This document shows positions 2,671 to 41,200 of a DNA stretch of 51,549 nt, piece after piece. The notes beneath the pieces were generated by a model. That model was not told the origin of the DNA. It did not search any database and worked only from the letters and a program-made list of their open reading frames with translations. Source of the DNA: Candidatus Methylomirabilota bacterium (lineage in GTDB: Bacteria; Methylomirabilota; Methylomirabilia; Rokubacteriales; CSP1-6); contig DATFGS010000274.1 of NCBI GenBank assembly GCA_035249225.1, positions 1-51,549 of the forward strand, read 5' to 3'. The translations under genes and the position numbers were made by a program. Within the stretch, counting starts at the first letter, position 1. Each line of letters starts with the position of its first letter.

Positions 2671-2789
2671 CTCCGCGTCACCATGCCGCGAACTCAGCGC
2701 GCGCGTCTACTCGCTCGCGTGGGCCCCAAGGGTGTGACCTCCATAGAGCGTGAAGTTGCTACGAGCGCGCGGTGTGACGGTGGACTGTG

Positions 2790-3026
2790 CTAAAAGGCGG
2801 GTCTCCGCAGTTCGGAGGGTTTTTTCCCGAGGGCGGTGATTTGTTGCAGGTAGGCGACGGTAGCGGGGGAGAGGCGGATGCGGCGGGTGCGGCCGCGGTT
2901 CTTGGTGATCCAGATGCGTTGGCGGGGGAGTTGGTGTTTGGAGATGAGGTTGACGATGGTGCGGACGTTGCGTTCGCAGAGGGTGGCGGCTTGCTCCAGG
3001 GTGTACCAGACCTCGGGGTCGGTCAT
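2790..3026 (-). CDS. Helix-turn-helix DNA-binding protein (excisionase/MerR-like HTH; alternative small-terminase or Xis candidate)
   Basis: YTLEQAATLCERNVRTIVNLISKHQLP is a typical short winged-HTH. Product is 78 aa. Its start overlaps the stop of the upstream gene (ATGA at 3023-3026). Confidence 0.65.
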   Translation of the reverse strand: MTDPEVWYTLEQAATLCERNVRTIVNLISKHQLPRQRIWITKNRGRTRRIRLSPATVAYLQQITALGKKPSELRRPAF

Positions 3027-3790: not shown

Positions 3791-4104
3791 CACGGCTCCT
3801 GTGGCAGATCCGGGATCTGGGGGTCCTGGGCGACGCGCTCCAGGGCGTCGATCAGGGCGGGGTGGTCCTTGGCGAGCTGGTCGACGACCTTGGTGATCTC
3901 CGCCACCTTGCCGGCAGCGCCGAAGGCCAGCTCCAGGCGGCGCGCCGGCTCGCCGGGGGCCAGGGCGAGCTCGAGGAGCGCGTCGACGTCCTCGTAGAGG
4001 CGCAGGAGGTCGTCGAGACCGAGCGGGCTGGCGGGGGCGGTCGGGTTCTTGCGCCACTCGCTGACGAGCGCGTCGGCGGCGGGATCGAGCGGCTCGTGGG
4101 TCAC
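3790..4104 (-). CDS. Hypothetical protein (104 aa, acidic/helical)
   Basis: Only the C-terminal part of track ORF 3790..4596 looks protein-like (VTHEPLDPAADALVSEWRKNP...LIDALERVAQD). GTG 4104 lies 35 nt after the upstream stop. The SD is weak. Confidence 0.5.
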   Translation of the reverse strand: MTHEPLDPAADALVSEWRKNPTAPASPLGLDDLLRLYEDVDALLELALAPGEPARRLELAFGAAGKVAEITKVVDQLAKDHPALIDALERVAQDPQIPDLPQEP

Positions 4105-4138
4105 GCGGCGCCGTCGCGGGCGCCCGCAGCCGAGCGGG

Positions 4139-4771
4139 TCATGCCCGGAGCTTCCGCCCGGTCTCGCGGGCCTGGTTGAGGCGGGCCATCGCATCATGGG
4201 AACCTCCCTCGTGGTCGGGGTGCGCGGCCTTGGCGAGTTTGCGATAGGCGTCGTCGATCTGCTCGAGGCTGGCGGTCGGCAGCACGCCCAGGATCTCGAA
4301 CCATTGCTCGCCCGCAGGGAGCGCGGCGTAGCCGGCGAACGCCTGCTCCAGCGTGCCCACGCCGTAGCGGTCGACGGCGCGGATGGCCTCGATGTGGGCC
4401 GCGATCGCGGCGATGTTATCGGCGACGCGGAGCCAGCGGTCACAGGCGAGCGTACGCGGCTTGCCCTCGAGCTGGAAGTAGACGGCCGCGCCCGGGTCAA
4501 GGGGGTCGCGTTGGTCGGAGCGGGGAAGGCCGTCGAGACGGAGAACGAGATTCGTCGAGAGGATCTCGTTCGCCGCGCCGAGGCGATCCAGTTCAAGGCG
4601 GAGGCGCTGGGTCGCAGTGTAGACGGAGATCTCGCTGGATGTCCGCCATGACTGCTGGCCGTCGCTACTGTACTTCCGCGAGCTCTGCGAGAAGCGGGCG
4701 CGCTGGCGGTGGCGCGGCTCGGTCCGGCGCCAGCCGGCGGGCCACGCGAGCGGGTAGCGTTGTTGATTCAT
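4139..4771 (-). CDS. J-domain (DnaJ-like) protein
   Basis: C-terminal J domain WFEILGVLPTASLEQIDDAYRKLAKAAHPDHEGG with the HPD motif. Start ATG 4771 (MNQQRYPLAWPAGW) has an ATGA overlap. Confidence 0.8.
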   Translation of the reverse strand: MNQQRYPLAWPAGWRRTEPRHRQRARFSQSSRKYSSDGQQSWRTSSEISVYTATQRLRLELDRLGAANEILSTNLVLRLDGLPRSDQRDPLDPGAAVYFQLEGKPRTLACDRWLRVADNIAAIAAHIEAIRAVDRYGVGTLEQAFAGYAALPAGEQWFEILGVLPTASLEQIDDAYRKLAKAAHPDHEGGSHDAMARLNQARETGRKLRA

Positions 4772-4938
4772 CGCGACTCCGCGCGTTCCATGCTGGCCCG
4801 GAGGCGGTCGACCTCGCGCAGGGCCTGGCGGTAGTATCCGCGCTCGATCAGCCGGCCGATGTGCTCGAGGCGGAGCTGGTAGCGGTCCAGGCTCCGGGAG
4901 CTCGCGGCCTGACGGGGCTTCGTCACGGTCTTTCTCAT
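4768..4938 (-). CDS. Small hypothetical protein (56 aa, helical)
   Basis: ATGA overlaps at both ends. Product is MRKTVTKPRQAASSRSLDRYQLRLEHIGRLIERGYYRQALREVDRL... Confidence 0.55.
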   Translation of the reverse strand: MRKTVTKPRQAASSRSLDRYQLRLEHIGRLIERGYYRQALREVDRLRASMERAESR

Positions 4939-5306
4939 GGCGTCTTCTCCTCGAAGAGATCGGCAATCGCCTTGCCGCGCCGGCGCGTGTGGAAGGCGTT
5001 GCGCTGGTGGTGGGGCACGTCGTAGCGGAGATGGCACCGATTGCACATCGCCCGGACGTGGGCGGGATCCGCACAGAGCGGTTGACACCGACAGGGGCCG
5101 TCGGGCCCGTTGAGATGCGCGACGGTGAGGACGACGATCCCCTTCGCCCACTGGGCGGGCTGGCGGTCGCGCTCGACACAGCGACGCGGGCCCGGGTGGG
5201 TCCGATGGAGACCGCACTCGCCTAAGCACTCGCATTGCCCCTGCGCCCGCCCGTAGCGGATCATCCGGCTGAATGTCTTCCACTCCGGCGGATAGACCGG
5301 CTTCAT
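4935..5306 (-). CDS. HNH endonuclease
   Basis: CECLGECGLH...LTVAHLNG...CNRCHLRYD (Cys-rich HNH/zinc motif). The start was trimmed to ATG 5306. Confidence 0.85.
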   Translation of the reverse strand: MKPVYPPEWKTFSRMIRYGRAQGQCECLGECGLHRTHPGPRRCVERDRQPAQWAKGIVVLTVAHLNGPDGPCRCQPLCADPAHVRAMCNRCHLRYDVPHHQRNAFHTRRRGKAIADLFEEKTP

Positions 5307-26803: not shown

Positions 26804-29376
26804 TAGCTCGACGCTCCATAGGTTTCGGCGGTGGCCCCAGGCACGCGCCCGGCGCCGGGGAGGAGGCCCGCCGTCGCGAAGACCTCGGCCTGCACGCGGC
26901 CGGCGCGCATCGTCTCGGCGGTCGCCCCCGCCACCGCGAAGGCTTCCATGGTGGCCCGGCCGATCTGGTAGGTCGGCGCGATGATCTGGACGAGCTCAAC
27001 GAAGCCCCCGGCCGGGATGAAGAAGGCGAGGAATTCCTCAGCGAGGTTGACCTGCTCCTGGAAACTCTTTGCGATCCTGACGATGTGCGTCTCGGTCAGC
27101 CCGAGGGTATCCTGCACCGCCTTCCCGACTTGGCGCCGAAGCGTCTCGGTCAAGAGCACGTTGTCGCTGAGCGCCTTCGTCTTGATCACACTGGTCACGA
27201 GTTGCTCGGTGAACGCGGCGAGCTCGGCGATGGTCTTGCGGACGGTGGCAGTGTCGGTCTCCGTCAGGCTGACCGTCTCCGCGGTGGCCCGGCGAACGAG
27301 GCGGGTAAGCGTCTCGTTCAGGGACAGGGCGTCCGCGCGCGTGGCGAGGACCGCCTTCAGGGCCGTCAGGTTCTCGGTCAGGCTCACCGTCTCGGCGAAG
27401 GTCTTGTTCGTTTGCCGCGCCTGGGCCTCGGACAGGAGCACGGTCTCGGCGATGCTCTGCGACTTCCGGACGAGGAGGGTGAGGTTCTCCGAGAGGAGGA
27501 GCGTGTCGGCCAGGGGCCGGAGGATGAACTTCAGCGTCCCGAGGTTCTCGGTGATGGCGACGGTGTCGGTCAGGTTCTTCCGGGTCTCGCGCGCCAGCGT
27601 CTCAGTCAGGCTCAGGGTCTCCGCGATCGACGCCTGCTTCCGCGCCGCGAGCTGGAGTTGCTCGGTCAGGGAGAGCGTCTCCGGCAGGTTCCGGATGATG
27701 AGCTTGATCGCGGTCAGGTTCTCGGTGAGCTGGAGCGTCTCGGCCACCGTCTTCGAGGGCCGCTTCGCCAGGGTCTCCGACAGGCCGATCGTATCGGCCA
27801 GGCCGTTGACCTTGGTCACGGCGAGGCGAAGCTGCTCGGTAAGGCTCAGCGTGTCGGAGACGCCGCGAAGGACGACCTTGATCGCGCCGAGGTTCTCCGA
27901 AAGGCTCAGGGTCTCGGCGAGCGGGTGGGTGATGACGCGCCGGAGGCTCTCGGTCAGGGCCACGGCCTCAAGGATCGTCTTCCGGGACTGGACGGTCTGA
28001 TCTTCGGTGAGCGCCAGCACTTCGCCGAGCGCTTTCCGTGCCTGGAGCTGATCAGCTTCCGATAGGGCGAGCGTGTCGGAAGGAGTCTCGTTGAACTGGG
28101 TGCCGCCGGCCGCGACCTTGAACACCGCGACGCAGCCCGTCGCGTCGTCGGCGACCGAGATCGTCCAGGTCGCGTTCTTCGATGCCGCCGACGCCTGGAC
28201 GTCGTACTCCACCTGACAGCCAGTCGGCGTGTGGTCGAAGAGCTCCACGTACCCGGCGCCGGGCGTGGTCGAGAACGCGGAGCTGTTCGAGGTCAGGAAG
28301 CCCAGGTAGAGGTGTCCGTCCGCCGAGGCCGTCACCGAGTTCGAGTCCGGCGTCGTCGTCGAGGCGTTGACCTTGGAGTTCGTGCCGTCCAGCGCCCCCG
28401 AGGTCTCGGCGCCCACCCACTCGCAGACCACGAGGACGCGACTGCCCGTCGAGGCGGAGAATGTCACCGTCACCGCCTCGCCGTTGTTGCCCGCCGCAAC
28501 GTTCTCCGCGTAGCGGATCGTCACCCGCTCGGGGTTCCCTCCGTTCGTGACCGCGTTTTGCCACGTGTTGCCGTCGTCATCGGCGACGCTCGAGATAGTT
28601 TGAGCGGAGTCGTTGCGGATGCACGCGGTCAGGAGGCTGCCGGCCAGCCGCGGCCAAATGTTGACGGCCACGGTGCTCCCGGTCCCGCCCGGGACGAAGG
28701 AGACCAACTGGCGCAGTGTCCAGCCCCCATCCGCGGCCGGCGGATTCGGGATGCCGACCGTGATCGAGCAGGTCCCGTTCGGGGTCTGGTTGTCGGCATA
28801 CGCGCCGGGATTCTCCGACGCCGCGGCGGTGAGCGCGCGGTCAGAGACCGCCACATCCCCCGTCGCCGCCCCCGCCACATCCGCCCGCAGCGTGTAGTTG
28901 GTCGGCGCCGTGGGGGTCAACGTCTGCGAGGCCGTCAGGTGCCAGGCCGAGATGGCCAGCACCAGCCAATCGCGCGTGCTGTCGAGGGTCACGTTCGGCG
29001 GGTCAGGGGCACCCGTGCCCGTCGCGGTGACCGACGCCGCCTCAATAGCGTCGAGTCCGAAGGTGCCAGTCTGCACGACGTAGCAGCCGGTCCATGTCTC
29101 GGTCCCGACCGAGGAGGTATAGGCCTGGTAGCTGGCGGCGCCGGCCGCGGTGGCGATCTTCCCGGCGACGGAGAGGCGGCCGTCGGTGGAGCCGTCGTTG
29201 TGGCTGTGCGACAGGATCTCGACGAAGCCGGCTTGCAGCGTGTGGGTCGGGATGCCAGCGCCCGCCCGCTCCCAGGTGAACACCACCACCAGGTCACCGA
29301 CCTGGGTGCCCGCTGGGGAGGTCGTCGACAGCCCCGCGACGGGGGCGGTCTCAGCGCGGCGGGAGGGCGCGGCCAT
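26803..29376 (-). CDS. Tail fibre / receptor-binding protein with two N-terminal beta-rich domains and a C-terminal repeat array
   Basis: 857 aa. About 19 copies of (D/E)(T/A)(L/V/I)xLx(E) in the C-terminal half. Located at the end of the tail module. Confidence 0.75.
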   Translation of the reverse strand: MAAPSRRAETAPVAGLSTTSPAGTQVGDLVVVFTWERAGAGIPTHTLQAGFVEILSHSHNDGSTDGRLSVAGKIATAAGAASYQAYTSSVGTETWTGCYVVQTGTFGLDAIEAASVTATGTGAPDPPNVTLDSTRDWLVLAISAWHLTASQTLTPTAPTNYTLRADVAGAATGDVAVSDRALTAAASENPGAYADNQTPNGTCSITVGIPNPPAADGGWTLRQLVSFVPGGTGSTVAVNIWPRLAGSLLTACIRNDSAQTISSVADDDGNTWQNAVTNGGNPERVTIRYAENVAAGNNGEAVTVTFSASTGSRVLVVCEWVGAETSGALDGTNSKVNASTTTPDSNSVTASADGHLYLGFLTSNSSAFSTTPGAGYVELFDHTPTGCQVEYDVQASAASKNATWTISVADDATGCVAVFKVAAGGTQFNETPSDTLALSEADQLQARKALGEVLALTEDQTVQSRKTILEAVALTESLRRVITHPLAETLSLSENLGAIKVVLRGVSDTLSLTEQLRLAVTKVNGLADTIGLSETLAKRPSKTVAETLQLTENLTAIKLIIRNLPETLSLTEQLQLAARKQASIAETLSLTETLARETRKNLTDTVAITENLGTLKFILRPLADTLLLSENLTLLVRKSQSIAETVLLSEAQARQTNKTFAETVSLTENLTALKAVLATRADALSLNETLTRLVRRATAETVSLTETDTATVRKTIAELAAFTEQLVTSVIKTKALSDNVLLTETLRRQVGKAVQDTLGLTETHIVRIAKSFQEQVNLAEEFLAFFIPAGGFVELVQIIAPTYQIGRATMEAFAVAGATAETMRAGRVQAEVFATAGLLPGAGRVPGATAETYGASS
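27000..28060 (-). repeat. Degenerate in-frame tandem repeats inside the fibre gene
   Basis: ETLSLTE, DTLSLTE, ETVSLTE, DTIGLSE and similar recur about every 17-20 aa between roughly residues 440 and 790. Confidence 0.75.
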
Positions 29377-30391
29377 CGCTTACGCTTTGAGTGCGCTCTT
29401 CCATGGCCGCGCCGACCACGACGGCGGCCAGCATCCCGAGCGCCGGGACGCGAAAGGGGAACATCCCGACCGACAGGATGCCGAGCGCGACCACCGCCGG
29501 GCCCCAGCTCGTCCAGACCGTCGCGCGCGCCGACCACGTCCAGGCCGTGAGGATGGCGAACCCGATCAGCCCGGCCTCGACGAGAACCTGGAGGGGCTCG
29601 TTATGGGCATGCAGGAAGAGCCCGCCGGGTTGGCCGAGCGCGAACTGATAGCTCGGCATATACGTCGCCCACCCGTTCGGCCCGAGCCCGAGGAGGACGC
29701 CGTTATGGAGCCAGAGCGTCAGACCGTACCCCCAGGCCGCGCCGCGGTTCCAGAACGAGTCGAGAGACCCGACGACGTCGCGGTCGGGGTCGAGCAGGGT
29801 CGCCACGGTCAGGACGACCGCGATGAACGCGGCCGCGGGCACCGACCAGCGCCAGTACCGCCGCCACCGCCACGCCACCGCGGCCGCGAACGCCACCAGC
29901 CCCAGTCGATGCCCGCAAGCCACGAGGCCGGCGGCGAACAGCGGCAGGAGGACGGGCGGCGACAGCGCCCCCGTCATGGCCATCGCCGAACCGGCCCAAT
30001 TCGGGTTCCCCATCGTGCCCGTCGCCCGGAAGCCGTCGAGGAACTCCGGCCGGTCGAACCCCGCCGCCTGAGCCAGGGCGTAGACCGCCTGGGCCGCCCC
30101 CAGGGCCACCAGGACCGGCCGGGCATACGGGAAGGCGTACCCGCGCCGGATCAGGGCGTAGGCGAGCAGGCCGAGCGCCAGGAGTTGCACGGCGACGAGC
30201 CCGCGCTGCTCGCTAGGGGTGATCAGCGTCAGGAGGGCGCAGTAGGCGAGGAAGACCCCGGCCCAGCCGTCCACATGCACCGCGAGCCAAGCCCCGCCCG
30301 CCACGAGCACCAAGGCGGCGAAGAGGCGCGCGTCTCCCCCGGTGCGAGTGGCGAGCATCAGCAGGGCCAGGATCGCGAGGACGACCGGCAC
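29351..30391 (-). CDS. O-antigen ligase/polymerase-like polytopic membrane protein (Wzy_C family), paralog 3
   Basis: FRATGTMGNPNWAGSAMAM, GHRLGLVAFAAAV and GLGPNGWATYMPSYQFALGQPGGLFLHAHNEPLQVLVEAGLIGF. GTG start at 30391. Its end overlaps the fibre start by 26 nt. Confidence 0.8.
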   Translation of the reverse strand: MPVVLAILALLMLATRTGGDARLFAALVLVAGGAWLAVHVDGWAGVFLAYCALLTLITPSEQRGLVAVQLLALGLLAYALIRRGYAFPYARPVLVALGAAQAVYALAQAAGFDRPEFLDGFRATGTMGNPNWAGSAMAMTGALSPPVLLPLFAAGLVACGHRLGLVAFAAAVAWRWRRYWRWSVPAAAFIAVVLTVATLLDPDRDVVGSLDSFWNRGAAWGYGLTLWLHNGVLLGLGPNGWATYMPSYQFALGQPGGLFLHAHNEPLQVLVEAGLIGFAILTAWTWSARATVWTSWGPAVVALGILSVGMFPFRVPALGMLAAVVVGAAMEERTQSVSDGRALPPR

Positions 30392-30394
30392 GGC

Positions 30395-31120
30395 CTACTC
30401 GATGGTCAGGTCGTAGGTCGTCTGCAGCGAGTCGCCGGAGGACAGGTTGACCGTGGCGAACACGATGCGGCTCCAGATCGTGTCGGTGACGCCGTTGCCC
30501 TGGCCCACCGCCGCCGAGCTCAGCCGGTTGAACAGGCCCCACTCGCTGACCGCGATGGAGGCGTCGACCGTGTTCAGGCCGACCGTCCGGTAGATGCTCT
30601 GAGAGCTCCCGACGACCTGGGTCCCGAGGGCGCGCTGGTTGTCTGGGTTGTACTGGGTGGTCGCCTCGGCGCCGAGCGCGGTATCGGCCTCGGCCGCAGC
30701 GACGGCGCCCGTCCCGATCGCGTGGTACTTCCAGGTCGCGACGGTGCCGGTGCAGCCGGAGCCGGTGTTCGCGATGAAGCACTCGCGGAGGGCCCGCTCG
30801 GCGACGTCGGGGATCAGGTTGCGCTTGAGCGCGATCGCCTTGACGCGGCACCCGCCAGCCTGGGCATCCTTGACGAATTGCGGGGCGAGCCACTTCGCGA
30901 GCGCGTAGCGGGCCGCCTGCTCGAGCTGATAGGCGTCCCACGCCTCGGCCATCCGATCGCGCTGGGCCTCGCACGCCGCCGTGTAGGCGATGGCCATCAT
31001 CGTCCCGTGGATGCGGCGGCCGGGTTCCTTGATCAGCCAGGGCGAGAGCTCCACGCCCGCCGCGAAGAGGAACGACGCCGCCACCAGAACCGCGGTCACC
31101 TTGCCGAGTCGCTTCATCAT
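30395..31120 (-). CDS. Signal-peptide/TM-anchored protein with a tail-collar-fibre-like C-terminal domain (241 aa)
   Basis: AAGGAGG SD. MMKRLGKVTAVLVAASFLFAAGVELSP. The C-terminus AIGTGAVAAAEADTALGAE...VSEWGLFNRL...IVFATVNLSSGDSLQTTYDLTIE is reminiscent of collar-fibre domains (weak call). Confidence 0.55.
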   Translation of the reverse strand: MMKRLGKVTAVLVAASFLFAAGVELSPWLIKEPGRRIHGTMMAIAYTAACEAQRDRMAEAWDAYQLEQAARYALAKWLAPQFVKDAQAGGCRVKAIALKRNLIPDVAERALRECFIANTGSGCTGTVATWKYHAIGTGAVAAAEADTALGAEATTQYNPDNQRALGTQVVGSSQSIYRTVGLNTVDASIAVSEWGLFNRLSSAAVGQGNGVTDTIWSRIVFATVNLSSGDSLQTTYDLTIE

Positions 31121-31142
31121 GTCATCGCCTCCTTGGGCAAAC

Positions 31143-31178
31143 AAAAAGGGCGGAACCGGATGCGCTCCGGTCCCGCCC
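31143..31178 (-). terminator. Intrinsic terminator (bidirectional geometry)
   Basis: Minus-strand sequence GGGCGGGACCGGA-GCGCA-TCCGGTTCCGCCC followed by TTTTTGTTTG. An A-tract on the other side gives plus-strand symmetry. Confidence 0.75.
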
Positions 31179-31228
31179 TGTTTTGTCGCCTGCCGGATAG
31201 CTAGCCCGGCAAGCTGATCAATCGAGTT

Positions 31229-31492
31229 TTAGTTCGTGGTCGGTGCTTCTAGCCCTTTCGCCTGAAGCCATGCGGACAGCGCAGTATGGATCGCCACATC
31301 CCCATCCTCGAGAGTGACCTGGAGATCGCCGAGGTCGTGGCGATTGAACGCACCGCCGCCAGGATTGTGCAGGAATCCGAGGTTGTGCTTTTTCACGAGA
31401 ACTCGGATCGCCTCATGGGCCGCCTGCTCCTCGGGCTGCTGCATCCGGCGCTGAAGCGCCGCCCCGGCCTCCGCCGCCTCGCGCTCGTTCAT
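31229..31492 (-). CDS. Hypothetical protein (87 aa)
   Basis: ATGA overlap at 31489-31492. Followed by a terminator. Confidence 0.55.
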   Translation of the reverse strand: MNEREAAEAGAALQRRMQQPEEQAAHEAIRVLVKKHNLGFLHNPGGGAFNRHDLGDLQVTLEDGDVAIHTALSAWLQAKGLEAPTTN

Positions 31493-31746
31493 TTCGTCTG
31501 GATGCCCTTCGCCTTGGCGGGGTCTGGGTTGTGCGCGGGCTGCCGCTGCACCTTGAGCTCGCCCGTCGCCGTCTTCGCCCCCGGCTGCGAGTGCAGCGGG
31601 TCTGGGCCCTGGTCCGCCTTCCGGATGACTCGGCCGCCCAGCGACTCGCCCATGTGCATCTGGTCCTTCTGGGCGAAGACGATGCCCGCCCAGAGAACTA
31701 CCAAGACCGCGACCGCCAAGAGAATCAGCTTCATACCGGCGCTCAT
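31489..31746 (-). CDS. Small membrane/secreted protein (85 aa)
   Basis: GGAGG SD. MSAGMKLILLAVAVLVVLWAGIVFA. Confidence 0.6.
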   Translation of the reverse strand: MSAGMKLILLAVAVLVVLWAGIVFAQKDQMHMGESLGGRVIRKADQGPDPLHSQPGAKTATGELKVQRQPAHNPDPAKAKGIQTK

Positions 31747-32300
31747 GTTAGCACCTCCCCCGTGGAATTGACCACCGCGAACCACTCGTCCCGGTCGTAG
31801 CCGTAAAGTACCCGGTCGTAGTACCGGTCGCCGATGGAGATCGTCGCCCGCTGACGCCCCTCCTCGCGCGCCCGGTAACGTCGCCCGGACTTCGGCCCAT
31901 GCAAGGCCGACAGGCTGTGTAGGTTGCTGGTATAGACCTCACTCTCGAGCTTGTAGATCTCGGGCCAGCCCGCGAAGATGAAGTCGTAGGCGTCGTCACA
32001 GATCGCGGGCCCGAGTCCCTGACCCCGGCAGAGCGCCCAGAGGCCGATCCCGAACCGCATGGTCGTCGGCGCCGGCTGGCTGAGGAAGATCAGGCCGAGG
32101 GTCCCGTCGCCACACTTCGCGCCGCGGAGCACGTGCGCGGTGTCCCAGATCAAGAAGTACCGCTCGGCCGGGCGCGGCCGCGGCACCGTCCACTCCGGCC
32201 CGAAGGCGAGGTCGGGCGGGTCGAGGTCGACGCAGGCTTCCGCCCAGTAGCGCGGGACCGCGTCGCGACTGGCGGGTGGGAACTGAAAGCGGTCGCTCAC
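31743..32300 (-). CDS. GNAT-family N-acetyltransferase
   Basis: RFGIGLWALCRGQGLGPAICDDAYDFIFA (Q/RxxGxG/A motif A) plus ...YDRVLYGYDRDEW. GTG 32300 forms a GTGA overlap. Confidence 0.7.
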   Translation of the reverse strand: MSDRFQFPPASRDAVPRYWAEACVDLDPPDLAFGPEWTVPRPRPAERYFLIWDTAHVLRGAKCGDGTLGLIFLSQPAPTTMRFGIGLWALCRGQGLGPAICDDAYDFIFAGWPEIYKLESEVYTSNLHSLSALHGPKSGRRYRAREEGRQRATISIGDRYYDRVLYGYDRDEWFAVVNSTGEVLT

Positions 32301-32824
32301 CCGGCTAGGGCCCGGCGGTAGAGCGCCATCGTATAGTGTCCATGGATCAGCCCTGCGTACCGGGCCCGCAGCGCCGCGCCGATCGGGCTCGCGGCGAGCC
32401 GTCGGTAGAGCGCCTTGTTGAATGCCGCATGTGCGTCCTCGTCGGCGATCACGCGGTCGTAGACGGCGGCCGTCTCCAGGTCCCCCGCCGCGGCGAACGC
32501 CCGGCGCGCCGACCGCAGGCTCGGCCGCATCTTCCGCTCCACCGCCCGGAAGTCGGCCACCCGCAGCGCCGGCTCCTCGAGCCGTCCGCACGAGGCGTCG
32601 CTGATGGCCAGCACCGACTCCCGCGTGTCCGGGGGCGTGTCGTAGCGCGCCAAGGCGGCACTGAACACCTGCTCGTGGGCGATCTCTTCCACCGCCTGCT
32701 CCAGCACCCCGAGCCGCTCGGCGTCGGTCAGGTGCGCCGACGTGGCGATCTCGAGCAGGCGGTTCCGACAGATCTGCTCCGCCCCAATCTGGTCACGCAG
32801 GACATTCGCGAGCGCTTCGGACAT
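32297..32824 (-). CDS. Helical protein with two ExxH motifs (possible ferritin-like/di-metal fold; weak)
   Basis: AAGGAG SD before ATG 32824. VEEIAHEQ and ADEDAHAAF lie in predicted helices. Confidence 0.6.
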   Translation of the reverse strand: MSEALANVLRDQIGAEQICRNRLLEIATSAHLTDAERLGVLEQAVEEIAHEQVFSAALARYDTPPDTRESVLAISDASCGRLEEPALRVADFRAVERKMRPSLRSARRAFAAAGDLETAAVYDRVIADEDAHAAFNKALYRRLAASPIGAALRARYAGLIHGHYTMALYRRALAG

Positions 32825-32844
32825 GGCCGTCTCCTTTTCTGGGT

Positions 32845-34203
32845 TCACCCTCGACTCTTTACGGGGATCTCGACCTCGACAAACGGCTCCTTCCAGTCGG
32901 CACGTGTCCGCACGACGCGCGCATCACCCCGCGCGAACGCCGCCTGCATCTTCGGATGGTCCACGAGCTGCTGCTTGACGAAGCTCGAGAGCGTCGTATA
33001 CCCGGCCCGGAACGCCCACGCCCCGACGTGGCGGGAGCTCTGGAGCATGCCGGGCTCGTCGAACAACCCCCCGACCGTGGCCAGGCTGGCCACCCCCGGG
33101 CGACGGTGCCGGAGCATGCGCGCGTACCGCAGCGTCCCGTCCTGCGCCCCCAGGAGCAGGGTCGCCCGGTCGAGGTGCCACCACTCCTGGACCATCCGCA
33201 GCGCGGTGGCCCGCTGGCCAAGGTCGGGCGGCACCGTCTCTCGGATCAACTGCTCCACCGCCGGCAGGTCCGCCTCGGTGGCTTCCCACGTCCGCACCGC
33301 GCCGGTCGACTGGTCGAAGCCCAGTCGTTTCCGCAGCGGCCATCCCTGAAACACCCCGAGGTCGAGCGGGAAATCCAGCCGCGTCACCATCGGCTGCCCC
33401 TCGAGGTCCGGGCGCGCCGTCCCGATGACCCGCGCCCCGTAGTTGGCCGTCAAGGAGGCGATCCAATCGGGCCGGTCGGCGCGCGTGTCCGACTGCAGGT
33501 GGCGCACGTTCGCGTTGAGCAGGTGCTCGAACACCGGCCGCTCCGCCTCGCGCCAGAACCAGGAGGGCCGCTCGCGGCTGTGGTGCACGGTCAGCGAGAA
33601 CGTCGCGATCCCGCCATCCTCCCGAACGATGATCTCGTGCTGAAGCGGCACGCCGTTGAACGCGAGCCGAGTCTGCCAGGCGTTGCCGTTGCCCAGCCGA
33701 CGCGCCGCCTGAAGCCAGCCGTGCGCCTCCGGCGGCCGACAGACCCCACACGTCGGCGGGCACGTGGCCGCCACGAGGCCGCTCGCCATCATCACAGGCA
33801 CCAACACATCCAGATCATCGCCGTCGAAGGGGAGCAGCTCGAGGCCCGGAACGCCGGGGTACGTCATGCTCGGCAGCGGCAGCCCGCCGTAAGGCGTCGC
33901 ATTCGCGGGCACTCCCGCGTCCGGGTACTCCGCGCGGACCGCGTCGATCAGGCGACACCGCCGAGCCGCGTCGTCCCCAGACTCTCCCAACTGCCGAGCC
34001 CGCTTCCACACCGCTCGGTCGTCGTGCGGGACCCGCAGCATCCCTTCCTGGACGGCGTACGTCCGGCCCAGGCGGACGTCATCCCACGTCTTGAGGTCGA
34101 CCGGATGCTCGTCGGGCACGCCGACCGGCACCGTGGGCCCCTCGCGCAGGACCCACCCGGTCGTCCAACCCGACCCGTCGAACTTGATCGCGGGGTGTGT
34201 CAT
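32845..34203 (-). CDS. Hypothetical protein (452 aa), ATGA-coupled to the tail-tip gene
   Basis: The start was trimmed to ATG 34203. Protein-like composition throughout. No recognisable motif. Confidence 0.7.
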   Translation of the reverse strand: MTHPAIKFDGSGWTTGWVLREGPTVPVGVPDEHPVDLKTWDDVRLGRTYAVQEGMLRVPHDDRAVWKRARQLGESGDDAARRCRLIDAVRAEYPDAGVPANATPYGGLPLPSMTYPGVPGLELLPFDGDDLDVLVPVMMASGLVAATCPPTCGVCRPPEAHGWLQAARRLGNGNAWQTRLAFNGVPLQHEIIVREDGGIATFSLTVHHSRERPSWFWREAERPVFEHLLNANVRHLQSDTRADRPDWIASLTANYGARVIGTARPDLEGQPMVTRLDFPLDLGVFQGWPLRKRLGFDQSTGAVRTWEATEADLPAVEQLIRETVPPDLGQRATALRMVQEWWHLDRATLLLGAQDGTLRYARMLRHRRPGVASLATVGGLFDEPGMLQSSRHVGAWAFRAGYTTLSSFVKQQLVDHPKMQAAFARGDARVVRTRADWKEPFVEVEIPVKSRG

Positions 34204-37200
34204 GCCGACTTCACCAGGCTCAGATACTGGAAATAGGCCACCGACACTTGGGCACTCGACGCCGCATTCGCCCCGGTCCGCTGGTACGTCAGCACGACGT
34301 CCTTGAGGCCCGTCGCGGCAGGCCGGAACACGGAAAAGATCGCCGGAATCACCGAGGACATACTGGTGCCGCCTCCTTTGACGCCGCCGTTGAGGCTCTG
34401 AATCCACGTTTGCAGGATGGCCCCGGTCAGCCCACCGTGCCGAACACGCCAGGTCACCTCGAGGGCGACAGCCCGGGAGAAGGCATCATTAAACGAGATC
34501 GACGCCCGGATCCACCAACGAACGATGTCGTTGAGCGAGACGATCTCGTCGAGCGCCGGGAGCGTCACGGCAATCGTTTCCGTCGCCCCGGAGTCTGTCG
34601 TCACGCCGAGCGACCCTTCGCCCGCTCCGCCCCGGTTGACGGCGAGATTCGTGATGAGCGGCGTCGGGGTCGCGCCGCCGATGACCTCGATCCGCTTCGT
34701 CGTGGTCGCGTTGCTCTCCGAGCCGTACTTCCAGACCCCTTGATCCGAGAAGGCGTAGCGCCCGAAGATGAGCGCCGCCGGGTTCCCGACCGCCGTGCTC
34801 GTGATGACGGCATTCCTGACGAGCATGGTCTGCGTCTGACTCGCCTGGGCCCCTTCCATGGCGGTTGCGGCGCCGATGATCGTCTTGCCGTCCCAGGCGG
34901 CCGGGAGCGAGATGGTGCGGTGCATCCACTGTTCGAGCGCACCCGAGCCGAGGGCCGTCGTCGGCTTGCCGCTGGCGCCGTTCTGGTCGTTGCCGAAGTC
35001 GCGCGCCCCCGTGCGGATGATGCGGTAGCTGATCGTGCCGGTGGGCGTCGTGGTCCAGGCGGCGACCGTGGCCGTTTTCGTCGACCCGACATAGGCGGTC
35101 ACCTTCCGGGTCTGGCCGTTGGCCGCCGGAGTGCCGTTGGACAGGATCTCGATCCACATGTCGTTGTAGGTATTGTCACTGCCCGACGCCGCGGCGTTGA
35201 GAACCAGTGTCGTGCTTGTGGCCGAGGCCGCATTTTCCGGTCCGCGCTCGATCGCGGCGACGTCGAAGCCGCCCTCGGTGAGTGTCGAGTCGTTCCCCCG
35301 GAAGAGGATGTCGTACTCGAGCCGGTCCCCTGTGACCTGCGTGTAGGCGAACTCGACGGTCGCCTCGCGCCAACTATCCCGCGGCGTACCCGCGCCGAAC
35401 AGGACGGAGTGATACCAGGCGAAGGCGGCGACCTGCACGCCGAGCTCCTCGTCCAGATCCTGCTCGGTCACCGGCCCGGTCAGGTAGGGGATCGTCGAGG
35501 AGTCGGTGCTGACCGCCGTCGGGGCCGACTGGCTCGCGACCGCAGCCACCCAGAACAGACTCAGGCGAACCCCGCCCGAGGCCCCGAACTGGGGCGTCAT
35601 ATCGAGGATCTCGAAGACCTCCGCCGTGAAGCCGCGGAGCCCCGTGCGCCGGTTCGGCATCCGCGCGTCGGTGAAGAGGATCTGATCGCCTGGCTCGATC
35701 TTGTGGTTCCGGTAGAGGACGTCAACCTGGATGACCGACTGCGGCTCGGCATAGCGGCGGATGATCTCGAGCGCGCGTTCGTCGGCGATCGTGCTCCCGC
35801 CCAGTGCCGAGCGGATCCCGAGCGACGAGATGACGATCGGTGGTTTCCGCCCGTACTTGCCAATGCTCATGGTCGGGTCGGAGACGGTGCCCTTCTCGTA
35901 GGTGCGCCGCGTCCCGTAGATTCCCGCCGCGCCGGCAATGTTGTAGTCGTAGTTGAACTTAATGACGTTGATGACCTGCTCGTCGGCCCGGAGCCACGAG
36001 GCGGCGATGATCTCGTCAGCGTTGAGCGTCACGGTCGGCGAGGACACCGCGACCTTGTACCGCTTCGCGGAGAGTTTCCCGTCCTGGGTGACGACCGGGT
36101 AGCAGTTCAGCGTCCGCCAGATCTGCTCTTCGATGAACGTCTTGCCGTCGAAGGGCGAGGTGATCGAGAACTGGTACTGGCTGGTCGTGAAGTTCGCATC
36201 GCGCACCGCCTCGATCGCCGTCACGTCGACCAGGGCAGATGGGACGGCCAGCCCGCTGACTGCGGGGAGGATGTCCCAGCGGCTCGCGCCGCCGCGCTGG
36301 AAGGCGAGGCCCGAGCCGCTTAGAATGCAGTTCTGCGCGGCCTCGAAATGCGTGTTGTCGGTGATCGAGCCGACGCGGACGATCTCGCCGCTCGCCAAGT
36401 AGACGGCATCGCCGACCGAGAGCTCGGTCGTGAAGCTCGTACCCGCTCCGGTGACCGTCGCGTCGCCGGGCGTCGTCGACACCGTGCCGGTCCGGGTCGA
36501 GAAGGTCCCGGCCGAGATGAGGCACGCGAGCCCGATGTCGACCGGGTTCCCGGCCAGGACCACGGGAATATCCTGCGTCGCGCCGATGAAGAGCGAGCGC
36601 CGGAGCGTCCGCTGCACGTCCTGGCAGGTGATCTCGAACGTGACCCGGTCCGCCAGCATGGAGACCTTGACGATCTCCATCTTGACGAAGCTCATATAGT
36701 CGGCTTCGGCCAGCGGAGCGTAGCCGCAATAGAGCTGAATCCGGTTCCCGGCCCGCAGTTCTTCGCCGTTCCGGACGCCGTCGCCGTTGCTATGCGCGGC
36801 CGCGCTCGTGCCGTCCACACCGCGCGTGCAGCCGGTGAAGGTGAAGAACGTTTTCCCGGTGTACCGGACGCGCTCAATGACGCCGGCCGTCGTGATCTCG
36901 ATCGTCCCGACGGCCGGGTATCCCTCCGTCGACTGGTTCGCGATGATCGTCGCATCGCCGCTGCCGTGCGCGCCGTTCAGGGTGAGTTCCGGATTCGACA
37001 GGTACTTCAGCACCTCGCCGCCCTTGTCGAGCAGTCGGAAGACCATCGTCCCGATCGAGGAGCGCCCGAGCTCGGCCTCGATGACCTGGGTATTGCCGGA
37101 GGGATTGAAGAGCCAGGGGTACTTCGGGGTCGCGGCTGCGCCGACGTCGCCCGTCGAGAAGTCGCGGGAGAAGGCGTAGTCGGTGCCCGCCCCGTAGGTC

Positions 37201-37289
37201 TTCACGTGGTAGGGGCGGATGAAGTAGCGCGGGGCGGTCGCGAGCTTCGGCCGCTCGACGTCGTAGTTCGCGGTCGCGGTGCGGGGCAT
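34200..37289 (-). CDS. Tail-tip / host-specificity protein (gpJ-like central fibre, 1029 aa)
   Basis: Its size and its position after the tape measure and two small tail proteins. Beta-rich sequence. Confidence 0.7.
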   Translation of the reverse strand: MPRTATANYDVERPKLATAPRYFIRPYHVKTYGAGTDYAFSRDFSTGDVGAAATPKYPWLFNPSGNTQVIEAELGRSSIGTMVFRLLDKGGEVLKYLSNPELTLNGAHGSGDATIIANQSTEGYPAVGTIEITTAGVIERVRYTGKTFFTFTGCTRGVDGTSAAAHSNGDGVRNGEELRAGNRIQLYCGYAPLAEADYMSFVKMEIVKVSMLADRVTFEITCQDVQRTLRRSLFIGATQDIPVVLAGNPVDIGLACLISAGTFSTRTGTVSTTPGDATVTGAGTSFTTELSVGDAVYLASGEIVRVGSITDNTHFEAAQNCILSGSGLAFQRGGASRWDILPAVSGLAVPSALVDVTAIEAVRDANFTTSQYQFSITSPFDGKTFIEEQIWRTLNCYPVVTQDGKLSAKRYKVAVSSPTVTLNADEIIAASWLRADEQVINVIKFNYDYNIAGAAGIYGTRRTYEKGTVSDPTMSIGKYGRKPPIVISSLGIRSALGGSTIADERALEIIRRYAEPQSVIQVDVLYRNHKIEPGDQILFTDARMPNRRTGLRGFTAEVFEILDMTPQFGASGGVRLSLFWVAAVASQSAPTAVSTDSSTIPYLTGPVTEQDLDEELGVQVAAFAWYHSVLFGAGTPRDSWREATVEFAYTQVTGDRLEYDILFRGNDSTLTEGGFDVAAIERGPENAASATSTTLVLNAAASGSDNTYNDMWIEILSNGTPAANGQTRKVTAYVGSTKTATVAAWTTTPTGTISYRIIRTGARDFGNDQNGASGKPTTALGSGALEQWMHRTISLPAAWDGKTIIGAATAMEGAQASQTQTMLVRNAVITSTAVGNPAALIFGRYAFSDQGVWKYGSESNATTTKRIEVIGGATPTPLITNLAVNRGGAGEGSLGVTTDSGATETIAVTLPALDEIVSLNDIVRWWIRASISFNDAFSRAVALEVTWRVRHGGLTGAILQTWIQSLNGGVKGGGTSMSSVIPAIFSVFRPAATGLKDVVLTYQRTGANAASSAQVSVAYFQYLSLVKSA

Positions 37290-37292
37290 CTC

Positions 37293-37802
37293 CTACGCGC
37301 TGGCGCCCCAGACCATGATGTCGTAGACGACCGACGTCCCCGCCCCAGAGTTCGCGATTCGCAAGAGGTCGGTCGTGCCCGCGCCTGCGGGGTAGGCGGT
37401 CGCGTCGAGCGCCGCGATGCAGAAGAGCCCGCCTGGCCGGACGACGACGATGTCGCTCGAGTTCGCCACCCAGCCGACGAACTGCGTCGCCGCGGCGCCC
37501 CCGACGTGCACGTTGTTCGCGTTCGCGAGCGCCGCGTAGACGAGGAAGCCCTTAACCCGGACGAATTGCAGGGTCGCGCCGAAGGCGTCGGTCAGGCCAC
37601 CGCGCAGGTCGAGGTCCTCGTTCGAGGAGGCGCCGATCGTGCGCTGGTCGTGCCAGATCAGATCGCCCTGATTCGCGCCCGTTCCGTCCGCCAGCACCAG
37701 CGCCTTCAGGAAGTTGAAGGGGATACCCGCGGCGCCCTGGAGGTCGAGCGCCTTCGTGAACATCGCGTCGACCTTCAGCTCGAGCCGATGCTGCATCCCC
37801 AT
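37293..37802 (-). CDS. Tail/baseplate-associated protein (169 aa)
   Basis: Position between the distal-tail-like gene and the tail-tip gene. Confidence 0.6.
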   Translation of the reverse strand: MGMQHRLELKVDAMFTKALDLQGAAGIPFNFLKALVLADGTGANQGDLIWHDQRTIGASSNEDLDLRGGLTDAFGATLQFVRVKGFLVYAALANANNVHVGGAAATQFVGWVANSSDIVVVRPGGLFCIAALDATAYPAGAGTTDLLRIANSGAGTSVVYDIMVWGASA

Positions 37803-37806
37803 ACTG

Positions 37807-38253
37807 TCAGCTCCCTTGCTGCCGCCACGAGAGGGCGATCTGGTAGAAGGGCCGCGAGAGCGTCATCCGCTCCGGGGCGAAGGTGTCGTTGATCAGGACG
37901 GCGCGCGTGAAGAATCGGTTGTAGACGTCATACTCGACCTGATTCAGGCTCCCGCACGTATCGAGCCGGTCGAGCGTCAGGAATGCCTCGCCGCCCTCGA
38001 AGCCCCACGTCTCGCAGTAGTTCCGGAGCGAGGTCAGCATCGCCCCCGAGATCGGACGGAAAACGATGTCCACGCGGCGCTCGGTGCGCTCGTAGAGGGT
38101 TTCCTGGAGCCCGCTGACGGAGATGTTCTTCCCACGGATCGCGGTCAGCGGCGGAACGCTGACCGTGACCGGGTCGTCGAAGTCGATCCGCCCGCCCGCC
38201 CAGACCAGCGAGGGATAGAAGAGCCCGGACCGAGGCGCGCCGATGACGGGCAT
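37807..38253 (-). CDS. Distal-tail-protein-position gene (148 aa)
   Basis: Starts directly after the tape-measure stop (TAGATG). Confidence 0.6.
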   Translation of the reverse strand: MPVIGAPRSGLFYPSLVWAGGRIDFDDPVTVSVPPLTAIRGKNISVSGLQETLYERTERRVDIVFRPISGAMLTSLRNYCETWGFEGGEAFLTLDRLDTCGSLNQVEYDVYNRFFTRAVLINDTFAPERMTLSRPFYQIALSWRQQGS

Positions 38254-41200
38254 CTACGGCCCCGCCCCGCCGCCCGGGCCGCTCGGTCCGCTCGGGCCAT
38301 CCGAGCCCGCCGGCGCGTCGCCCTGGCCCGTGTCCCCCGTGCCGCCGCCGCTGGTGAACGCGCCCTGCGCCCAGCCGGCGAGCGCGAGGAGCATCAGGAG
38401 CTCCCACTGGGCGAGCGGATTCTCGACGGCGTCCGGGCCACTCACGGCACCCGGCGTCGCGCCACCCGGGAGCCACGCCTGCGCGCCCGTGATGACCGGC
38501 GTCCCGATCGCCTCGCCCGGATCCGGCCGCTCGTTCGACCCGAGCAGGTAGTTCCACATTGTCCAGAAGGCGCCGCCGAACTGCTGGTTGACCGCGTCCG
38601 GCGCCTGGGTGCGGCCTTGCGACGTGTTGAGCGCGATCCCCTGGTTGACGTTCTGGGTGACGTCGGTCGGCGCGGTCGTCGTGCCGTCCTCAACCCAGAC
38701 GGTGCCCTGGCCCTGACTGACCCACTGGCCGCCCGGCTGACCCGGCAGCGTCTTTGGCGCGGCCTGGAGGTTGGCCCCGTAGCCTTGCCCGCCGTAGAGC
38801 TCGCCCCAGGTGCTCGGGGCGAGCGAGCCCAACGACTCAGGCGTCGCCCCGCCCTGGATCAGGAACGCGGTCGCGTCCTTCATGTACTGCTGAAGCTGCG
38901 CGGCCGCCTGCTGGATCGGCGCCGGATTCTGGCCGGTGTGCGCGTAGAAGTCGCTGATGCCGATCGGCCCGCCCGGCCCTTGCACCTTGCGGTAGTAGGC
39001 CGCGAGCGCGGCCGAGCCGAGCGCGAGCGCGTTCTTGATGACCGTCGGGTCGGTCACGCCTTGCGCGCGGAGCGCGGCGAAGAGCGCGTTCGCCTGGGTG
39101 ATCTGCGTCTGCGCTTGGCTCTGAAGCCGGGACGCGACCTGGCCGATCACGGCCCAGCTCCGGAGGTCCTTCATCTCGTCCTTTGAGATCGCCCACTGGA
39201 TCAAGCCCTGGATCAGCGGCGCCGCGGCAGCGAGATACGGCCCGGCCGCCGCGAGCGCCGTGCTCGCGATCTGCGCGCCAGCCTCGGCGCCCACGCCGGT
39301 CAGGACCCCGACCCCTTGGGCGAGGAGGGTCGTGATCCCGGGCACCGCGTTCGACGTCAGCGTCGAGATGGCGGAGTAGATGCCGAGGACGCTCTGCGCG
39401 ATCGAGATCGGGTCGCCGGTCTGCGCGCCCTGGAAGAGCCCGTAGAGCGCCCCGGCGCCCTGGAGGACCGCAAGGCCCTGCGAGTAGCCGAACTCGCTGC
39501 CCGCGGCCGCGCCGATGTCGTCGAGGGAATCGAAGAGGCCGCGCCCCTGCGCCTCAAGGTCCCCCAAGGCGAGCGAGGAGCCGGGCGCCGGCCCGCTGAT
39601 GCTCCCGCTCGAGAAGAGTTGCGAGATCTTCGCGGCGAGATCCGCCCCGGTCCAGCCTTGCGGCAGAATCGCGTTGAGGAGGCTGTTCGGGTCGGCAAGC
39701 TGGGCGCCGAGCGCGAGCGCCGTCGCCCCGCCCGCGGTGAGGAGCTCGCCGGTCGTGGGCGCCGGCGTGGTCGGGATCACGGGCGGGGGCGTCGTCTGTA
39801 CGGGCGCGGTCGGCGGGAGGACGGGCGCGGTGGCGCGCGTGACGCTCACGATGAGGTCGTTCTCGTCCCGGACGAGCCGGTTCATCCCCTGGTCGGCGTC
39901 GTAGCGGACGAGCTGGCTGTAGATCGTGGCGATGGTCGGGTCGTCGAGCCCGAAAAGCCCCGCGTTCTCGATGTCGAAGTTCTGGCCCTGGAACCGCGAG
40001 GCGAGGGTCGCCGGGACTTCGGTGCGCCGGCGGACCCCGCCATCCGGGGTCGGGATCAACTCTTGATCGCTGACGCCGACCCCCTGCGCCTGCTGCTGGT
40101 ATTGCTCGATCAGGTTCTTCGCGATGGCGCGAAGGCCCTGCGAGGTGGCCGCGTTCGGCCCCGCGAGGGCGCTCGGGTCGACCCCGGCCTGGATCCCGGC
40201 CGTCAGGGTGTCCGGGTTCTCGATGATGTCGGCCAGGTCCGCCACCGGGTAGGTGGGGTTCGCCGTGCCGATCGCGCGGGGTGCGCCGCCCCCGGCTGGC
40301 GTGACGCTGACCGGTACGGCGACCGGCGTCGTGCCTCCCGTGGTTCCGCTCCCGAACTGCCGGATGATGTCGTAGAACTCCGGGAGGTTCCGGGCCGTTC
40401 CGGCGGCCTGGACCAGATCGCCTCCGGCCCCGGCCGCGCGCTGGAGTTCGGCGACCTGCCGGGCTCGAGCAGCCTCCTTGGCGGCCTGCTGCTGGGCCAT
40501 GTAGGCGAGCGTTCCGGTGATGGCCGCCCCGACCGCCGCGCCCCCGAGGGCCCCGGTCGAGGTACTGAGCCCGAGGGCCGGGAAACTCTGCGCGACCGAC
40601 GCGCCGAGCCCAGCCCCGCTGAGGGCGCCCAGCCCCGCTGAGACGAACGTTCCCGCCGGAGACGTGTTCTGTGTCGCCGCGTAGGCTGAAAGCCCCAAGG
40701 CGGCCGCATTCCCGCCCACGGCTAGGCTTCTCTGGAACAGGCTCGGGCTCGTCTGCGGGAGTACGTAGGAGGTCTGGGTGAACTCCGGCGAGATGTCGGC
40801 GAGGTAGCGGTCGCCCGCGACCGTCGCCCGGCCCTGCTGGAGCGCCCGGACTCCGGCGTCGCCCGCGGCCCGGTAGGCCGTCCCGACGTCCTGGGCTGAG
40901 AAATACTGGCCCGAGGGGGTTACCACCGTCCCGGCGGGGCCACCGCCGGACCCCGCGCCCTCGACCGCCGGGCCGAACGCGAGGCCCGTCGAGAGGCTGA
41001 CCGGCAGGAACGACCGCATCCCCCCGGAGAGCAGCCCCCGGAGGTTCTGGAGGATCGGCGCGGTGACCAGCTTGCCGAGTTCGTCCGTGATCGCCCGGAC
41101 CATCGAGTTTGTCATCTGCTTCGCCACGTCCGGGAGGGCTTTGAAATTCCCCGTGATGACGTTGAAGAACCCGTCCGAGAACGCCGCGCTCATGCCTTGG

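Follow-up and report, generated by a model that had tools for sequence, protein, structure and literature searches.

Why would genes for enzyme-like proteins be translated directly behind the gene for the tip of a phage tail? The question is raised by a contig of 51,549 nucleotides assigned to a Candidatus Methylomirabilota bacterium (DATFGS010000274.1, assembly GCA_035249225.1; the whole stretch is called the window below), in which we analysed an operon on the minus strand, one chain of six genes that runs 3' from a 1029-residue tail-tip gene and ends at a strong terminator. Three of these genes, encoding proteins of 452, 175 and 185 residues, are read here as a predicted tandem GNAT-fold protein, a putative ferritin-like two-iron protein and a small GNAT acetyltransferase. 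Sequence comparisons among uncultured phages indicate that a core made up of the C-terminal domain of the fibre, the tandem GNAT and the small GNAT moves among unrelated tails as a unit. We tentatively propose, as a reading that is possible but stays short of probable, that the enzymes mature or chemically modify the fibre tip during assembly and are not metabolic cargo. The elements concerned are the following.

34200..37289, minus strand: tail-tip / central-fibre protein, 1029 residues, with a C-terminal domain that is conserved together with the cassette
34203..35576, minus strand: DNA of the fibre C-terminal domain, residues 572-1029
32845..34203, minus strand: 452-residue protein, an N-terminal domain and two predicted GNAT-fold domains, without a Pfam or PHROGs model
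32297..32824, minus strand: 175-residue putative ferritin-like two-iron carboxylate protein, an optional member of the cassette
31743..32300, minus strand: 185-residue GNAT acetyltransferase, RimJ/RimL (Acetyltransf_3) type by profile, with motif A RGQGLG

A conserved cassette behind one fibre-tip domain

Loci were drawn from Logan, ENA, JGI, IMG/VR and one metagenome-assembled genome (MAG), and versions were counted as distinct at <90% identity; single loci are cited by their L numbers. The 452-residue gene exists in 18 distinct versions, all on contigs of uncultured phages from soil and groundwater. With a hidden Markov model (HMM) built on the last 455 residues of the 1029-residue protein, the gene before the 452-residue gene is seen to end in the same fibre domain wherever upstream DNA is available, and a stop/start overlap (ATGA, GTGA or TGATG) joins the fibre gene to the tandem-GNAT gene at all of the junctions read (14/14). 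A small GNAT-like gene, recognized with a broadened HMM, lies 3' in every locus with downstream DNA, and six versions (the window, L007, L008, L014, L015 and L034) also have the two-iron gene, always between the two GNAT genes. As for the trio that the preliminary description had singled out for a co-occurrence check, it is the pair of double and small GNAT that recurs across the cassettes, joined in these six by the two-iron gene.

The fibres themselves differ widely ahead of the shared domain. Full-length homologues of the 1029-residue protein (~52% identity) occur in L005, L007 and L008; in L001 (1062 residues), L004/L023 (1062), L014 (1337), L010 (800) and L012 (302) the C-terminal part only is shared, and the domain is carried by at least five different, unrelated N-terminal bodies. 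Most of the cassettes belong to phages with a tape-measure gene (long-tailed). In the podovirus-like L012 (7930-12444), a 302-residue fibre is followed by the tandem GNAT, a 166-residue protein, a GNAT-like protein of 173 residues, a 154-residue protein and a DNA ejection protein (phrog_4287). Identity between tandem GNATs stays at 36-59% even where that between fibre domains is down to 21-24%, and such slow evolution, as judged from these sequences, fits a conserved job and not a receptor-binding surface.

Outside these phages the families are nearly absent. A tblastn search with the 452-residue protein and the fibre domain against 50,697 GenBank phages gave no match, and the 452-residue family was found in none of 250 genomes of the host phylum. 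Among 185,579 species genomes the same family had one match, on a phage-like contig in a Limnocylindria MAG, together with the tail genes of the cassette. The three folds themselves are already known, as are GNAT-like genes in tail modules; what is new is the cassette, the way it is tied to a single fibre-tip domain in phages of different types, and the recruitment of a two-iron protein.

The preliminary description had allowed that a moron or a defence or anti-defence cargo might be parked in the tail operon. Chance insertion of a moron or of unrelated metabolic cargo would agree with the presence of the two-iron gene in only six cassettes and with two further genes at the 3' end of the operon, for proteins of 85 and 87 residues, which are specific to the window. 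Order, partner domain and coupling, however, are conserved across 18 lineages (where flanks are visible), the genes are joined to adjacent ones by overlaps, the trio has neither a promoter-like site nor a terminator of its own, PADLOC gives no family at E <= 1 for any of the three proteins, and the protein families are missing from cellular genomes. Because of the linkage, the universal coupling and the absence from cells, a moron, defence cargo and ordinary metabolism are all disfavoured, and we regard a chance insertion as highly improbable.

The 452-residue protein and its GNAT folds

The 452-residue protein has no match in Pfam, PHROGs, NCBIfam or PADLOC, and its family profile finds nothing among the PDB sequences at E <= 10; the homologues, ~20 in number, are all metagenomic, share 35-59% identity and carry no Pfam domain. 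The AlphaFold2 model, computed from 19 sequences, has a predicted local distance difference test (pLDDT) value of 90.6 and a predicted template-modelling (pTM) score of 0.85. It consists of an N-terminal alpha/beta domain (~1-110) and two GNAT-fold domains (~118-280 and ~297-447), each GNAT-fold unit being arranged as beta-alpha-alpha-beta3-alpha-beta-alpha-beta2. The preliminary description could place no motif in this protein, which stands as far as the libraries go, whereas the model points to an enzyme-like tandem GNAT fold.

Foldseek against the PDB returned 506 matches at E <= 1e-3, and among the 50 matches listed nearly all are GNATs. The best of them are the tandem GNATs 2wpw/2wpx (1e-9), VipF and 3tt2, and single GNATs, in the hundreds, cover one domain of the model with TM scores of 0.6-0.72. 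A search of a viral structure library agrees with the GNAT picture and matches N-myristoyltransferase-like proteins of giant viruses, with no match in that library spanning the whole chain. By hhalign, the GNAT domains give a probability of ~1% or less against the small GNAT family and no match to one another; the tandem GNAT assignment is one made by the predicted model alone. Two GNAT folds in a chain are likewise present in 2wpw/2wpx (CBG of the clavulanate pathway), VipF, Sphaerobacter 3tt2 and eukaryotic N-myristoyltransferase (E 1e-9 to 5e-7). Compared with these enzymes, the 452-residue protein has 9-14% identity and a different packing (whole-chain TM ~0.2-0.35), an extra N-terminal domain of 110 residues and a conserved Cys/Cys/His insert, and it lacks the canonical acetyl-coenzyme A (acetyl-CoA) loop in either domain.

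This loop, motif A (Q/R-x-x-G-x-G/A), is found in neither of the two GNAT domains; its positions are taken by RERPSW (from R210) in domain 1 and by FDEPG in domain 2, and the key glycine is missing. Invariant in domain 1 are H207 and R210-E-R-P213 at the beta4-alpha3 junction and R218, E219 and E221 on alpha3. In the run from S238 to W247, the residues S238, R244, D246 and W247 are invariant and the others either are kept at 90% or more or are variable; this run and N254-Y-G-A257 surround beta5-alpha4. The likewise invariant C148, C155 and H161 belong to an insert between alpha1 and alpha2. In the model the invariant residues cluster in the cofactor cleft of domain 1, and domain 2 is far less conserved. 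It is common in tandem GNATs that just one of the two domains is catalytic. Judged from the model, domain 1 would bind a ligand and is probably catalytic, with an unusual donor site, and domain 2 is probably degenerate. The tandem-GNAT family with this non-canonical cleft is new.

The lack of the acetyl-CoA loop in both domains, and its degeneration in some of the small GNATs, would suit an explanation without chemistry, in which the GNAT folds serve as a chaperone, an adaptor or a distal tip subunit for the fibre domain, much as tail-fibre assembly proteins or an adhesin of the gp38 type do. The linkage and the coupling apply to such a role equally, and the exchange of a fibre tip along with its helper is a classic host-range pattern: in T4 gp37-gp38 and in Stf-Tfa of lambda and Mu, a distal fibre domain and the downstream gene or genes are also exchanged jointly between unrelated tails. 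IVP-A of T7, which acts in morphogenesis and whose fold resembles that of acetyltransferases, is not known to carry out any chemistry (PMC4819975). The helpers of the cassette nevertheless differ from the Tfa and gp38 types in having enzyme folds and conserved residues of an active-site-like kind, and the invariant charged, Cys and His residues sit where GNATs bind their cofactor and substrate. The other two proteins of the trio also bear on this choice.

The 185-residue small GNAT

The 185-residue protein alone has no match in Pfam, PHROGs, NCBIfam or PADLOC. The profile of its family matches 3owc (7.9e-12) and also 2ge3, Rv0802c, RimJ/RimL and AAC(6'), as well as the sugar-nucleotide N-acetyltransferase PseH (5e-5). 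PF13302 is found at E <= 0.1 in 12 of the 13 family members (best 5e-9), and six of the 13 match phrog_1249, annotated as an acetyltransferase. In the 13 aligned sequences, G95 and G97 of motif A (R92-G-Q-G95-L-G97) are invariant and R92 is kept at 90% or more. The GNAT call of the preliminary description is backed by these profile searches (3owc, PF13302 and motif A), and by its sequence the protein is a true GNAT, of Acetyltransf_3 type. Such a perfect motif A in the close family argues against a GNAT fold kept for non-catalytic purposes.

Ahead of the GNAT core, the segment FGPEWxxPRPR is strongly conserved in the family; by comparison with the usual GNAT layout, it would fall in the part of the fold that gives the acceptor site its shape. 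The small GNAT of L008 (5008-5772) is longer, at 254 residues, and its N-terminal part has a zinc-finger-like match (PF23225, 7e-4), which is below the cut-off.

The 175-residue putative two-iron protein

For the 175-residue protein a word-indexed search gave zero homologues, and a full HMMER scan found five small ones of ~180 residues (51-30% identity). The proteins in the equivalent slot of L008 (196 residues) and L007 (234 residues) are distant homologues (30%, E 1e-7) and are 41% identical to each other. An orphan insertion had been considered for this gene and was rejected by the HMMER scan and the comparison of cassettes.

In an alignment of eight sequences of the family, E16, E47-x-x-H50, E96 and H132 are invariant, and position 129 is always a carboxylate (Glu in 7/8, Asp in 1/8); the only other invariant residues are L5 and P85. 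Because this ligand set of E, ExxH, E and ExxH is kept, we assign the protein, on its sequence, to the ferritin-like two-iron type. The family profile matches PDB entries in a range from 1e-5 to 3e-3, led by acyl-acyl carrier protein desaturases (1e-5) and symerythrin (3.6e-4) and including bacterioferritins, a designed di-iron protein and toluene monooxygenase. The invariant residues align on the desaturase motifs EENRH, QERA and DEKRH, which supply the iron ligands of the desaturases. The Pfam matches, namely DUF455 (2.6e-6, in one member), AurF, MiaE_2 and Rubrerythrin, are all below the gathering cut-offs; the single 175-residue protein gives only sub-threshold matches to AurF and DUF455, and no PADLOC family at E <= 1. 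The preliminary description had guessed at a di-metal helical bundle from two ExxH motifs, and both the kept ligands and the profile matches lend support to that guess at the level of sequence. The six ligand positions are common to the protein and to the ferritin-like families (desaturase, symerythrin/rubrerythrin, bacterioferritin, DUF455, MiaE). Compared with these, it would be a minimal bundle, and it stays under every Pfam cut-off, and its family has been seen solely within the phage cassette so far.

A two-iron protein with intact ligands, in the slot of six cassettes, is hard to explain if the GNAT folds only chaperone, adapt or cap the fibre. Because conservation extends to the tandem-GNAT cleft, to the acetyl-CoA loop of the small GNAT in its close family and to the metal site of the two-iron protein, we favour chemistry over a purely structural role and consider the latter unlikely. 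Neither the 452-residue nor the 175-residue protein was found to be an ordinary baseplate or fibre component, and the GNAT motif of the third protein has profile support.

The fibre C-terminal domain

The 1029-residue fibre protein has no Pfam match. The model of its C-terminal part (residues 572-1029) is all-beta, with a pLDDT of 73.7, and its fold matches are all weak: the C-terminal part of the central tail fibre gpJ of lambda (8xck/8xcj, E 4e-4, TM ~0.2), the lambda tail tip, TNF-like trimers, the lectin BC2L-C and the binding domain of a cyanophage fibre. Such matches of a predicted structure would fit the distal, receptor-binding end of a fibre. The extreme C-terminus of the fibre is a conserved [K/R]-S-x. 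The overlap with the next start codon limits the choice of the last residue; the serine is encoded by TCG, AGC, TCT and TCC, and these four different codons show that its conservation is one of protein sequence. The conserved [K/R]-S-x is a possible target site for the enzymes.

Two of the fibre genes have peculiarities of their own. In the 1337-residue fibre of L014 (948-4961), residues 440-641 match a LAGLIDADG homing endonuclease (phrog_11023, 1e-12), and this stretch may be an intein in the tail fibre gene. In L004 (6815-10004) the fibre gene lies in two overlapping frames of 934 and 226 residues, and the near-identical L023 and L026 are intact at 1062 residues; the split is either an assembly error or a frameshift. 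The tail module of L004 also contains two IS605 OrfB/TnpB (Cas12f-like) genes, at 2127-3317 and 4011-5195.

Operon layout and neighbouring genes

Re-reading of the open reading frames (ORFs) gave the same genes, minus-strand coordinates and overlaps as the preliminary description, including EEIAH and EDAH in the 175-residue protein and RGQGLG in the 185-residue protein. The ATG of the 452-residue gene overlaps the TGA of the tail-tip gene (ATGA), and the GTG start of the 185-residue gene overlaps the preceding stop (GTGA). The 175-residue gene has AAGGAG 7 nt 5' of its ATG; an alternative GTG at 32848 would give 183 residues, and the starts of the homologues match the ATG position instead. The third-position content of guanine and cytosine (GC) of the trio is 0.87-0.90, compared with 0.91-0.94 in most adjacent genes, and the word-indexed search gave ~20 homologues for the 452-residue and ~10, from metagenomes, for the 185-residue protein. 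Because homologues exist and the third-position GC is like that of the neighbours, we take the trio as real genes and not as chance ORFs of GC-rich DNA. By composition the trio does not stand out as foreign, the third-position GC being near that of the adjacent genes. There is no promoter-like site in 29000..38500. The operon continues with three further elements.

31489..31746, minus strand: 85-residue protein with a single N-terminal hydrophobic segment, outside the conserved cassette
31229..31492, minus strand: 87-residue soluble protein, outside the conserved cassette
31147..31179, minus strand: intrinsic terminator of the tail-tip operon, a 14-bp stem with 10 G-C pairs, then TTTTTGTTT

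The 85- and 87-residue genes are each joined to the preceding gene via ATGA, and their proteins have no counterpart in the other cassettes (E 1e-4). The 87-residue gene (31229-31492) has a third-position GC of 0.74, compared with 0.87-0.94 in all its neighbours, and may be a recent addition to the operon. The terminator that the preliminary description had placed after these two genes is indeed there as the 14-bp stem at 31179..31147.

Further 3' comes the stretch 29351-31144. For the 249-residue protein encoded beyond the terminator, L007 has a homologue of 228 residues (45% identity), and parts of an 857-residue fibre match genes of L007. One of the Wzy_C genes of this phage (29351..30391; PF04932, 3.5e-11) lies between these two, two genes downstream of the cassette, and is missing in the syntenic L007. 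Because L007 is without it and the flanking parts are matched, we regard this copy as an insertion specific to the window. In L008 (5897-7426), the closest relative, a 509-residue protein encoded right after the cassette combines a class I methyltransferase with an MptE-like domain (PF01973, 3.2e-12), which suggests that the operon may encode other modifications of proteins or glycans as well. The MptE-like domain (PF01973) also occurs in Maf-type flagellin glycosyltransferases.

These neighbours bear on an explanation in which the enzymes act on the host and not on the virion, by altering a cytoplasmic precursor of the fibre's receptor, such as an amino-sugar nucleotide. Infected or lysogenic cells would then no longer present the receptor, with superinfection exclusion or less readsorption of progeny to debris as the outcome. 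Co-transfer with a receptor-binding domain would fit one common ligand, the fibre domain resembles lectin and TNF-like jelly rolls (in weak matches), the small GNAT family matches PseH (5e-5), and the Wzy_C gene and the L008 methyltransferase with its MptE-like domain lie close to their cassettes. In phage epsilon15, moreover, the serotype-conversion genes adjoin the tailspike gene, so that there, too, enzymes are encoded right after the gene for a receptor-binding protein. The epsilon15-type genes, however, are expressed on their own and code for membrane or glycan enzymes, whereas the cassette encodes soluble GNAT-fold proteins with fibre-coupled translation. Overlapping codons at every junction read tie the expression of the cassette to a low-copy late structural gene, with no promoter-like site across 29000..38500. 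Conservation is higher in the tandem GNAT than in the receptor-binding domain, which one would not expect if the substrate of this GNAT tracked the receptor. The link to a Wzy_C theme, drawn in the preliminary description, finds no support in L007, where the trio is present and the Wzy_C gene is not. We judge modification of the receptor to be an unlikely alternative.

Comparison with known phage systems

T7 gp13 (IVP-A) and syntenic podovirus genes match acetyltransferases by profile comparison, and are non-structural morphogenesis genes within the tail and ejection module (PMC4819975; PMC6775973). The cassette likewise has a small GNAT-like gene in such a module, that of gp13 being apparently non-structural and required for morphogenesis, not for metabolism, and the position of the L012 cassette, just before the gene for an ejection protein, resembles the place of gp13. 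The differences are considerable. The cassette is a tandem plus a single GNAT, with or without the two-iron protein, in place of one small protein; it follows a fibre C-terminal domain and not tubular tail protein B, and mostly in long-tailed phages. In sequence, no relation to IVP-A was found, the PHROG match of the small GNAT being phrog_1249 only.

In mycobacteriophages, solo RimI-like GNATs are encoded in the late structural region and are predicted to travel with the virion (PMC5512222). Carried in this way, the GNATs of the cassette might enter the cell with the DNA and, as infection begins, acetylate host components, for instance factors of defence or of translation. The position of the L012 cassette ahead of the ejection-protein gene would agree with this, as would VipF, an injected Legionella effector, among the closest solved tandem GNATs. 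An ejected effector, however, needs no strict link to one fibre C-terminal domain; there is no match to a PADLOC or anti-defence family, features of ejection proteins were not seen, and a two-iron oxygenase would be an odd passenger. Virion-carried effectors are thus a quite unlikely explanation in our view. A literature search found no paper on a tandem GNAT in a phage.

Discussion

Because of the strict linkage to one fibre domain, the coupling to a low-copy late gene and the absence from cells, we regard the function of the cassette as bound to the fibre tip. In the fibre-tip maturation that we propose, ribosomes ending the fibre gene would restart on the tandem-GNAT gene, so that its product appears late and at a level that keeps pace with that of the fibre. 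The N-terminal domain of the tandem GNAT would dock on the fibre C-terminal domain or on the [K/R]-S-x tail. Domain 1 would hold an acyl donor in its conserved non-canonical cleft for transfer of the acyl group to the fibre tip, with domain 2 serving as a degenerate scaffold. The small GNAT, with its normal acetyl-CoA loop, would acetylate the same target, and the two-iron protein, where present, would add an oxidative step, for example a hydroxylation.

Several points weigh against this proposal. We know of no experiment or structure in which a GNAT is seen to modify a phage fibre, and only gene linkage points to the fibre as the acceptor; enzymes acting on the host receptor would be expected to show the same linkage to a receptor-binding domain. 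The loss of motif A in both GNAT domains of the 452-residue protein makes the binding of acyl-CoA uncertain from the sequence, and four divergent lineages (L010, L024, L030 and L031) have a small GNAT in which motif A has degenerated. The model of the fibre domain is of moderate confidence and its fold matches are weak. Pairwise identities show a partial shuffling of parts between cassettes; across the parts their correlations are modest, and the hypotheses are not separable by them.

A more specific form of fibre-tip maturation, which we mention as a long shot, is that the tandem and small GNATs acylate the tip and that the two-iron protein, where present, first hydroxylates it, yielding a lipidated or an N-hydroxy-N-acyl (hydroxamate) tip. 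If true, a lipidated tip would be comparable to the N-myristoylated entry proteins of eukaryotic viruses or to toxins acylated by HlyC, and a hydroxamate tip would mimic a siderophore and hijack a receptor for iron uptake.

To our knowledge, the receptor-binding proteins of phages are generally thought to need folding chaperones at most, and dedicated enzyme sets are not part of the textbook picture. The cassette, with three GNAT-fold domains and with or without a two-iron protein, points either to enzymes that mature or modify the tail tip or to a manipulation of the host receptor of a new kind. The phages being uncultured, the value of the finding at present is that of a hypothesis; it defines two protein families without a database model, and it could illuminate the long-unexplained acetyltransferase-like morphogenesis protein of the T7-like phages.

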